Of a stretch of 64,000 nt of DNA, positions 38,623 through 39,962 are shown one piece after another. A program made the position numbers and the translations under genes. The DNA is from an uncultured bacterium (GTDB lineage: Bacteria > Chlamydiota > Chlamydiia > Chlamydiales > VFKH01), in contig CAZVVT010000002.1 of the NCBI GenBank assembly GCA_964630595.1, forward strand, positions 1,609 through 65,608, written 5' to 3'. Numbering within the stretch: position 1 is the first letter of the stretch; every line of letters begins with the position of its first letter. The notes below the pieces were generated by a model that ran no database searches, was not told the origin of the DNA, and saw only the letters and a list, made by a program, of their open reading frames with translations.

Positions 38623-39108
38623 TTAGAGTGCTCCTATGGTCCACAGCGGCCGGTTCGGTGTGTAGTGAAACACAGGAAGCCTTTTTTCCTGCAGCTTAGC
38701 TCCAATCACCACAATCGCTTTTGTCTGCGGATCTTTTTCGATCACCTCCTGGATCTGCTCTAAAGGCGGATGGGGATCTTTGCCAATGCCAAAATAGGAA
38801 GAGTGGCCCCAGTGCGCCGTAGCTCTTAGTGCCTCTGCCCCAAGAGAGCGAGAATTGCTGATGATGGCAATGGGTCCAAGGCAGCGTGGGTAAAGCGTGC
38901 AGAGGTTTACTTCTCCGATCAGCAGACCGGAGCTTTCCGGTCCCAAAAAAATCGTCGGCTTGCCGATCAGCGCCCGTTTAATCTGCAACAAATCATGCAC
39001 CGCTACCCCCTTCGTGGGGCAGACAATCCAATCTACCCCCTTTTCAATAGCCTCTAATGCCGAAGCAAGGACTTGAGGAGCGGGAACGTCTAGCAAAAGG
39101 GAATTCAC
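38623..39108 (-). CDS. Truncated SucD-like protein (succinyl-CoA ligase alpha remnant, possible pseudogene)
   Basis: 161 aa with a GTG start. DVPAPQVLASALEAIEKGVDWIVCPTKGV...FLGPESSGLL...IISNSRSLG...GIGKDPHPP...EKDPQTKAIVVIG is collinear with the central part of E. coli SucD. It lacks the N-terminal CoA-binding GxTGxxG region and the C-terminal GHAGA phosphohistidine loop. Confidence 0.6.
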   Translation of the reverse strand: MNSLLLDVPAPQVLASALEAIEKGVDWIVCPTKGVAVHDLLQIKRALIGKPTIFLGPESSGLLIGEVNLCTLYPRCLGPIAIISNSRSLGAEALRATAHWGHSSYFGIGKDPHPPLEQIQEVIEKDPQTKAIVVIGAKLQEKRLPVFHYTPNRPLWTIGAL

Positions 39109-39962
39109 AAGATGCCCCCAGAAAGCACCGCCTGCTCGGCTAACTGCTTGCTGTCCGTTGTTACAAAGAGAGCGGGTGCGTGCCTATTCAGCCAATTTTT
39201 TGCCTCTTTTGCATAGCTGCCTTGAACACGAAGTAGAAATCGCCTACGAAGCTTGTACTTGAGTAGCACCGACACAAAGGTCGCCACCTGAATTCGTGCG
39301 CTCAAATGAGGATCGCTAATGTCCATTACAACCACAGGCTGAGAGACTTTCTGCAGTAGCTGCATGGCATCACTTAGTCGATCAGAAAGACGGGGACGGT
39401 GCAGGGCAAAGACATAACCCACCTCTCCCGCATAATGCTCAATCGAAGCGCATAGAGCCTCTGCAAGCCCTTTGCCACCCGCTATGCACACAATCTTGCC
39501 GCTCTGTTTCTGCAAACAACTAAATGCTTTCTCAACCTGTTTATCAAGGCGCGCCTGCACAGCACAAATCAATCCATTGATCAGCGTTACCTCTAAAGAG
39601 GTGCACTCTAAATCAACGAAGAGCTTTTCCATTGCTGGCACCACAGGACCCGACCAATGAATTTCGGCCCTCTCCCAGTCGATAGACCCCTTCACTTTCT
39701 CAAGCATCCCCTCTTGGTGAGGGTAGAGTAACACCTTATGCACAACTCCATCAGGAGTTGCTGTGCCAATGAGTCGGTGGACTACTTTGGGCACATCGGC
39801 TTTGGGCGCACGAATCAGGGAGCCTGCATTTACTGGTCGACAGACAACCCTGTCCGCTAATTCTATCGGCACATCCTCTTTGGCAGTCACACAGACATGG
39901 GGAACAACGGGCAGCCCCGCACCCGCAAAAAGTGCTAAAGCCTTTTCTTCACTGAGCAGCAT
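39105..39962 (-). CDS. Degenerate SucC-like protein (succinyl-CoA ligase beta remnant)
   Basis: 285 aa against ~388 for canonical SucC. Collinear landmarks are MLLSEEKALALFAGAGLPVVP, IVCIAGGKGLAEALCASIEHYAGE and RVQGSYAKEAKNWL...AEQAV. The ATP-grasp GGRGKAGG loop is replaced by AGSLIRAPKA. Confidence 0.6.
   Translation of the reverse strand: MLLSEEKALALFAGAGLPVVPHVCVTAKEDVPIELADRVVCRPVNAGSLIRAPKADVPKVVHRLIGTATPDGVVHKVLLYPHQEGMLEKVKGSIDWERAEIHWSGPVVPAMEKLFVDLECTSLEVTLINGLICAVQARLDKQVEKAFSCLQKQSGKIVCIAGGKGLAEALCASIEHYAGEVGYVFALHRPRLSDRLSDAMQLLQKVSQPVVVMDISDPHLSARIQVATFVSVLLKYKLRRRFLLRVQGSYAKEAKNWLNRHAPALFVTTDSKQLAEQAVLSGGIL

Follow-up and report, generated by a model that had tools for sequence, protein, structure and literature searches.

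The canonical subunits of succinyl-coenzyme A (CoA) synthetase, the beta chain SucC (~388 amino acids) and the alpha chain SucD (~290 amino acids), are known from E. coli (PDB 1SCU, 2SCU and 2NU7) and Francisella (6MGG), and keep an ATP-grasp glycine loop, a CoA-binding Rossmann N-terminus, a phosphohistidine loop and, in SucC, glycine-rich C-terminal motifs; in chlamydiae the two genes are found beside ftsY. Here we describe two open reading frames (ORFs), sucC' and sucD', which occupy this place in a 64,000-nucleotide stretch of DNA, hereafter the window, from an uncultured bacterium of the Chlamydiales (GTDB VFKH01; assembly GCA_964630595.1, contig CAZVVT010000002.1, positions 1,609 to 65,608 of the forward strand). 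They share the slot, the gene order and the tight stop/start coupling of the canonical genes, and SucC' follows SucC collinearly all the way from residue 1 to the last helix, but the products are only 285 and 161 amino acids long and the motifs listed above have been deleted or replaced. Both ORFs are catalytically dead remains of sucC and sucD, eroded in place, in a deep-branching chlamydia-like lineage.

Catalytically dead homologues that are kept for non-catalytic roles are familiar as pseudoenzymes, and those so far recognised keep a complete fold and remain under purifying selection. The ORFs described here are like them in that the catalytic residues have gone while an open, expressed-looking gene persists, but they miss half-domains, and protein-level selection on them is at most hinted at. 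The transcribed pseudogenes of Mycobacterium leprae offer a second comparison, having multiple in-frame stops, often lost start codons, weak Shine-Dalgarno sequences and high ratios of nonsynonymous to synonymous substitution (Ka/Ks) (PMC2753549). Like them, sucC' and sucD' are relics of dispensable metabolism that have stayed in position in a host-associated lineage, and read-through within an operon-like unit plausibly leads to their transcription, but they differ in being unbroken, in having start codons and in being coupled to their neighbours. Within the chlamydiae, convergent loss of tricarboxylic acid (TCA) cycle components has been documented in Chlamydiaceae, Anoxychlamydiaceae and Neochlamydia by Dharamshi et al. 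2023, who scored gene families by presence or absence (PMC9816063), and loss of the succinyl-CoA step in another chlamydial lineage is therefore unsurprising; the difference here is that the genes can be seen in an intermediate state, eroded but still open. That chlamydiae lose TCA components is already known, and frame-intact, coupled sucCD relics are an uncommon stage of ordinary gene loss. Nothing specific on eroded chlamydial sucCD was found in the literature.

Both ORFs lie on the minus strand, sucC' (39105-39962) beginning with ATG and sucD' (38623-39108) with GTG, and neither contains an internal stop. Profile and pairwise comparisons indicate clearly that sucD' is a descendant of SucD: its residues 1-137 correspond to SucD residues ~67-209, with ~30-37% identity over the aligned segment, and it matched the NCBIfam model PRK05678 (E = 5.5e-19, model positions 71-208 of 291) and the SucD chains in the PDB (E from 3.5e-18, for 6mgg_A, to 1e-15, residues 5-137 aligning with SucD 69-208), scored 60 bits with a hidden Markov model (HMM) built from 20 chlamydial SucD sequences and was paired with SucD by hhalign at 98.4% probability. 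The last 24 residues form a tail without significant similarity to SucD. For sucC' the similarity is weak but significant, and suggests a SucC relic from end to end; there was no Pfam match at E ≤ 0.1 and no phmmer match in the PDB, and an HMM of 18 chlamydial SucC sequences gave 16.7 bits in two collinear pieces, a score that was reached by none of 2000 composition-preserving shuffles (maximum 8.7), while hhalign placed residues 1-280 on SucC 2-384 over 265 collinear columns (E = 9.4e-4).

It is the genomic position that is decisive for descent from SucC and SucD. In a survey of GTDB species genomes and JGI metagenomes, using FtsY as the anchor, the ftsY-sucC-sucD slot was found to hold full-length genes in all 32 of the chlamydial loci with enough flanking sequence (18 from genomes and 14 from metagenomes), with sucC products of about 383-394 and sucD products of about 287-304 amino acids. 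In the window, sucC' lies in this same slot, divergent from the synteny anchor ftsY (40012-40863, plus strand) and directly upstream of sucD', with a spacer of 49 nucleotides (39963-40011) between the sucC' and ftsY ATG codons; in relatives ftsY and the sucC frame are equally near (in locus L016, for example, the sucC frame ends at 9957 and ftsY is at locus position 10001). Some of the surveyed loci carry doubtful labels: four from metagenome-assembled genomes named ‘Verrucomicrobia bacterium’ (L004, L011, L016 and L029) have a chlamydial ftsY-sucC-sucD arrangement, are among the best FtsY matches and are probably mislabelled Chlamydiota, and one labelled ‘Chlamydia trachomatis’ (L018) has an FtsY only 42% identical to that of the window and a SucC that aligns like that of an environmental chlamydia.

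When the ORFs were aligned with 18 chlamydial SucC/SucD sequences, MLLSEEKALALFAGAGLPVVP of sucC' aligned with MNxHEYQAKEILxxYGIPIP of the relatives and GKIVCIAGGKGLAEAL aligned with GNIGCMVNGAGLAMAT, while the C-terminal SucC motif GCMVNGAGLAMATMD was partly retained as VCIAGGKGLAEALCA. The ATP-grasp loop HAGGRGKAGGV has become NAGSLIRA with a 7-residue gap, PANFLDVGGGA is replaced by VGYVFALHRPR and NIFGGI by MDISDPH, and there are nine in-frame deletions, of 5, 7, 6, 1, 25, 29, 4, 28 and 3 residues (108 in total), and two small insertions. In sucD' the segments VPAP..LEAIEKG, GIGKDP and EKDPQTKAIVVIG align with their SucD counterparts, but the ORF begins at the equivalent of SucD residue ~66, the CoA-binding Rossmann half-domain with its QGxTGxxG motif (codons 1-65) being gone, and significant similarity stops at ~209, the phosphohistidine loop MGHAGAI and everything beyond it being lost. 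A MAFFT alignment placed PNRPLWTIGAL of the sucD' tail against PGRRMGHAGAI; this was rejected as a relic of the loop, the similarity being like that of shuffled tails (P = 0.45) and the aligned position having no histidine. A SucD profile run over all six frames of 37400-40100 detected no remnant of either lost end of SucD, and no relics of the missing SucC segments were found in other frames; as the lost parts leave no trace in any frame, a frameshifted pseudogene was rejected.

Erosion has also reached the residues that the relatives hold most firmly. Among the columns that are invariant in all 18 relatives, sucD' has kept 34 of 82 and sucC' 23 of 79, meaning that 59-71% have been replaced. 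Relatives with less than 50% mutual FtsY identity still share 71-78% of SucD and 45-61% of SucC, compared to 28-35% and 20-25% for the window ORFs. Against curated models, sucC' scored 14 bits with TIGR01016 (cut-off 375.55), and sucD' scored 68.5 bits with PRK05678 (cut-off 336) and 61.2 with TIGR01019 (cut-off 353). Descent from the two families is clear, but as functional SucC and SucD the products fall below the curated cut-offs and lack the catalytic motifs. With these segments lost, the glycine loop of the ATP-grasp domain deleted and 59-71% of the invariant residues replaced, the pair should be unable to form a succinyl-CoA synthetase, and canonical activity is excluded as far as sequence can tell. 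An earlier sequence-only reading of the window had described two intact, stop-free ORFs derived from SucC and SucD but heavily reduced, had quoted several conserved motifs in them, had seen no frameshifts and had considered canonical activity impossible without the phosphohistidine; the coordinates, the alignments, the homology statistics and the bit scores given here bear out each of these points.

Two further claims of that reading stood only in part. It had placed the ORFs in an ftsY-sucC-sucD-htrA order, of which the ftsY-sucC-sucD portion is what the 32 loci show, but sucD' is separated from htrA by a gene for a class I S-adenosylmethionine-dependent methyltransferase of 275 amino acids (37794-38621, minus strand). 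It had also regarded as preserved the GTGA in which the TGA that ends sucC' overlaps the GTG that starts sucD'. The overlap is real (39105-39108, minus strand, as read from the sequence), but the loss of SucD codons 1-65 makes this a new junction in place of the ancestral one; the sucC/sucD junctions of relatives are mostly TAAnATG or short overlaps, and the resemblance to them is confined to the manner of close coupling, with a run of G ahead of the start.

At the other end of sucD', the 3' truncation coincides with the methyltransferase gene, which is absent from the loci of all the relatives, and sucD may plausibly have had its 3' part replaced by an insertion. The gene has a codon-frame score (z = -2.15) that is atypical for the genome and the most extreme of the three locus genes tested; its product matched Pfam Methyltransf_12/25 below the cut-off and gave a weak CmoB-like match, and the methyltransferase domain of WbdD was the closest solved relative (E = 8e-6). 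It is possibly a horizontally acquired insertion, and the 59 nucleotides that it shares with htrA lie in the signal-peptide codons of the latter. A second methyltransferase gene in the window (32981-33892) was considered as a paralogue and rejected.

The question is then why the two frames are still open. In a neutral simulation, back-translated SucC and SucD were evolved until 35-45% of ancestral residues remained, which is roughly the state of the conserved columns (29-41%). The 285-codon frame stayed free of stops in none of 200 runs at 35% and in 1% of runs at 45%, and the 161-codon frame in 3-6.5% of runs, while across both ORFs there are about 15 insertions and deletions, every one a multiple of three. 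The sequence-only reading had offered either a snapshot of TCA-cycle gene decay or neofunctionalisation into a non-catalytic or altered complex. Frames free of stops at such divergence, together with indels that are all in frame, make plain unselected decay unlikely, and nonsense and frameshift mutations have been purged by something since catalysis was lost. Codon-frame likelihood was dropped as evidence on this point: the signal of sucC' (0.243 bits per codon) and sucD' (0.251) compares with 0.271 ± 0.072 for 51 window genes, but simulated neutral drift that avoids stops gives overlapping values (0.20 ± 0.06 and 0.16 ± 0.08 respectively). Neither protein showed clustering of its retained residues (seven of the eight tests gave P = 0.3-0.9 and the other a nominal 0.022), and such evenly spread erosion, in which catalytic motifs are not spared, is the pattern of generally relaxed constraint at the protein level.

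The arrangement of the genes offers one answer. Downstream of sucD', whose TAA stop is followed after a single nucleotide by the methyltransferase ATG at 38621, htrA (36458-37852, minus strand; 464 amino acids, with a signal peptide) starts 59 nucleotides within the 3' end of the methyltransferase gene, and queF (35670-36461, minus strand) overlaps the htrA stop by 4 nucleotides and is the final tightly packed cistron. The junctions of sucC'-sucD'-methyltransferase-htrA-queF are therefore, in order, a 4-nucleotide overlap, a 1-nucleotide gap, a 59-nucleotide overlap and a 4-nucleotide overlap. A Shine-Dalgarno-like GGGGG run (39115-39119, minus strand) lies 6 nucleotides 5' of the sucD' GTG within the final codons of sucC', relatives having a comparable G-run shortly ahead of the sucC stop, and an AGGAG Shine-Dalgarno sequence (38631-38635, minus strand) lies 9 nucleotides ahead of the methyltransferase ATG within the final codons of sucD'.

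From this tight packing, and from the Shine-Dalgarno-like elements inside preceding cistrons, we infer that the dead relics may still be translated as the leading cistrons of the sucC'-sucD'-methyltransferase-htrA-queF unit, with their frames kept open by constraint at the level of the operon, and it is this reading that we favour, giving it about an even chance of being correct. Both relics would be transcribed, and would be translated ahead of the other three genes of a packed five-gene unit, and a premature stop or a frameshift in either would break coupled translation, or would exert polarity on the methyltransferase gene, htrA and queF, and so would be purged, while the relic proteins themselves would do no useful work. 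Their 3' ends would serve translation initiation of the next cistron, the G-run acting for the sucD' GTG and AGGAG for the methyltransferase gene, so that the relics would in effect have become spacers, still translated, in which the initiation regions of the neighbouring genes lie.

Several observations count against such an operon-level explanation. Transcription and translation of the relics are both proposed from the layout, and sucC' has no obvious Shine-Dalgarno sequence. That neither a sigma-70-like promoter nor an intrinsic terminator was detected on the minus strand between 36300 and 40300 speaks for a single unit, but weakly, as the promoter search used a crude sigma-70 consensus that says little for chlamydiae. 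The GC skew of the plus strand is -0.02 to -0.20, meaning that the mRNA of the relics would be rich in G and not in C, unlike Rho loading sites, and this weakens the version of the explanation that depends upon polarity. A pure spacer would be expected to be deleted eventually, yet 1.34 kb persists. Furthermore, with re-alignment controlled for, the replacements at conserved columns were somewhat more conservative than under stop-avoiding drift (alpha, z = 2.4, P = 0.017; beta, z = 1.5, P = 0.067), which hints at some constraint at the amino acid level, although it could equally be explained by substitutions made on a long branch before function was lost.

These conservative replacements (Fisher-combined P of about 0.01 for alpha and beta together) are among the grounds for a different proposal, which we regard as possible but only tentatively so, that the ORFs encode a neofunctionalised pseudoenzyme pair in which SucC' and SucD' would fold, associate and be selected for a non-catalytic role, for instance in scaffolding, regulation or ligand binding. 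Frames that are unbroken despite saturating divergence, the keeping of start codons and coupling, and motif blocks such as EKDPQTKAIVVIG that are nearly intact would all be accounted for by such a role, as would a codon-frame signal typical of real genes, except that this signal does not separate a selected pair from stop-avoiding drift. Against the proposal, SucD' has only the latter half of one Rossmann-type domain followed by the opening half of another and, judged by the known fold of the synthetase in the E. coli structure, is unlikely to fold natively; the retained residues show no regional clustering, and single-sequence AlphaFold models of the two products were of low confidence (predicted local distance difference test, pLDDT, 45.6 and 43.5), too low for fold searches.

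Nor has the proposed pair any known counterpart. For sucC', a word-indexed search through 5.8 billion clusters found no match but itself, and for sucD' it found itself and one distant SucD; a full HMMER search of 1.84 billion representative proteins with sucC' again found only itself, and a scan of JGI metagenomes with sucC' found nothing. In the scans of GTDB genomes and metagenomes that were anchored on FtsY, full-length relatives did not exceed 49% FtsY identity and two short fragments reached 53-54%, and the relatives from these scans with enough flank all carry intact sucCD. As no orthologue of either reduced ORF was found in the clusters, the representatives, the GTDB species genomes or the JGI metagenomes, the reduced forms appear to be a lineage-specific oddity. 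It is in our view rather doubtful that SucC' and SucD' form a non-catalytic heterodimer, reduced from the synthetase and peculiar to this lineage, which is selected for a new function and has no database counterpart.

It is distinctly improbable that sucC' and sucD' are plain pseudogenes, unselected and open either by chance or through very recent inactivation. The complete loss of the catalytic motifs and the uniform erosion are what such pseudogenes would show, TCA components have been lost convergently in several chlamydial lineages (PMC9816063), and neither a second sucC or sucD nor any other TCA-cycle gene was found within the 64-kb window. Set against this, the joint probability of both frames staying free of stops was roughly 1e-4 or less in the simulation, the indels are without exception in frame, and the stops, lost starts and weak Shine-Dalgarno sequences reported for the pseudogenes of M. 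leprae (PMC2753549) are not seen here.

Very improbable, too, is an artefact, whether a mis-assembly or a sucC' that is unrelated to SucC and resembles it by chance. The failure of sucC' to match Pfam, or to find a phmmer match in the PDB or in large protein libraries, is what a chance resemblance would predict, but the SucC profile score that no shuffle reached, the hhalign alignment that is collinear from end to end and the presence of sucC' in exactly the conserved slot all speak against it. The Logan assembly of SRR12808457 is 100% identical to the window over 20.9 kb which include the locus, that of SRR12822863 is 100% identical over 7.6 kb elsewhere (window 8721-16324), there was no polymorphism between assemblies over the stretches covered, and both proteins are also recorded at NCBI on a 286-kb contig. 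The locus is not an assembly artefact, and the possibility that re-sequencing would expose the truncations as assembly errors, which had been named as a result that would overturn the sequence-only reading, is answered by an independent assembly that is identical across the locus. That the pair is a reduced but active succinyl-CoA synthetase, or a related CoA ligase, has in its favour no more than the unbroken frames and the coupled pairing of the genes, and its likelihood is close to nil given the absence of the phosphohistidine loop, the CoA-binding N-terminus and the ATP-grasp glycine loop, the replacement of PANFLDVGGGA and NIFGGI, and scores of 14 against 375 and 68 against 336 bits.

The window is otherwise a typical segment of a chlamydia-like chromosome, encoding ClpB, a Legionella-OMP-like porin, the lysine-pathway genes dapB, dapA and asd with an aminotransferase, nrdAB and PreP, and further LpxB, DnaA, Lgt, TrxB, FabHDG, a Ser/Thr kinase and RecR; an Rfam scan of its 64 kb gave no match. 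Just downstream of queF, a protein of 582 amino acids (33902-35650, minus strand) without a Pfam match contains a 41-residue unit, repeated five times in tandem over residues 358-562, whose motif is G-x-[FYL]-x-W-[VA]-E-x-[AS]-L...SLW..L; its gene adjoins the second methyltransferase gene and it may be a lineage-specific, effector-like protein. On the far side of ftsY, a gene for a 320-amino-acid dual-specificity phosphatase (40826-41788, minus strand; DSPc, E = 1.3e-12) with an N-terminal hydrophobic stretch converges on ftsY, the two 3' ends overlapping by 38 nucleotides, and its product looks eukaryote-like and of effector type. A protein of 597 amino acids (60617-62410, minus strand) has a eukaryotic-type protein kinase domain and the lowest codon-frame score of the 51 window genes (0.082 bits per codon). 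Four more proteins matched no Pfam family at E ≤ 1e-5 and appear to be lineage-specific, those of 928 (15062-17848), 626 (23259-25139) and 253 (25169-25930) amino acids on the plus strand and one of 369 amino acids (49911-51020) on the minus strand.

If the relics are indeed translated spacers, then the locus would be a clean natural example of operon architecture delaying the disappearance of dead genes, and it would also be a warning for annotation, as such ORFs get called hypothetical proteins or, worse, sucC and sucD when the metabolism of uncultured chlamydiae is reconstructed. A pair that had instead acquired a new function would count as a rare case of a pseudoenzyme with its origin in a core enzyme of the TCA cycle. 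Under either reading, this lineage has lost substrate-level phosphorylation at the succinyl-CoA step, a step which all of the other chlamydial loci examined keep.

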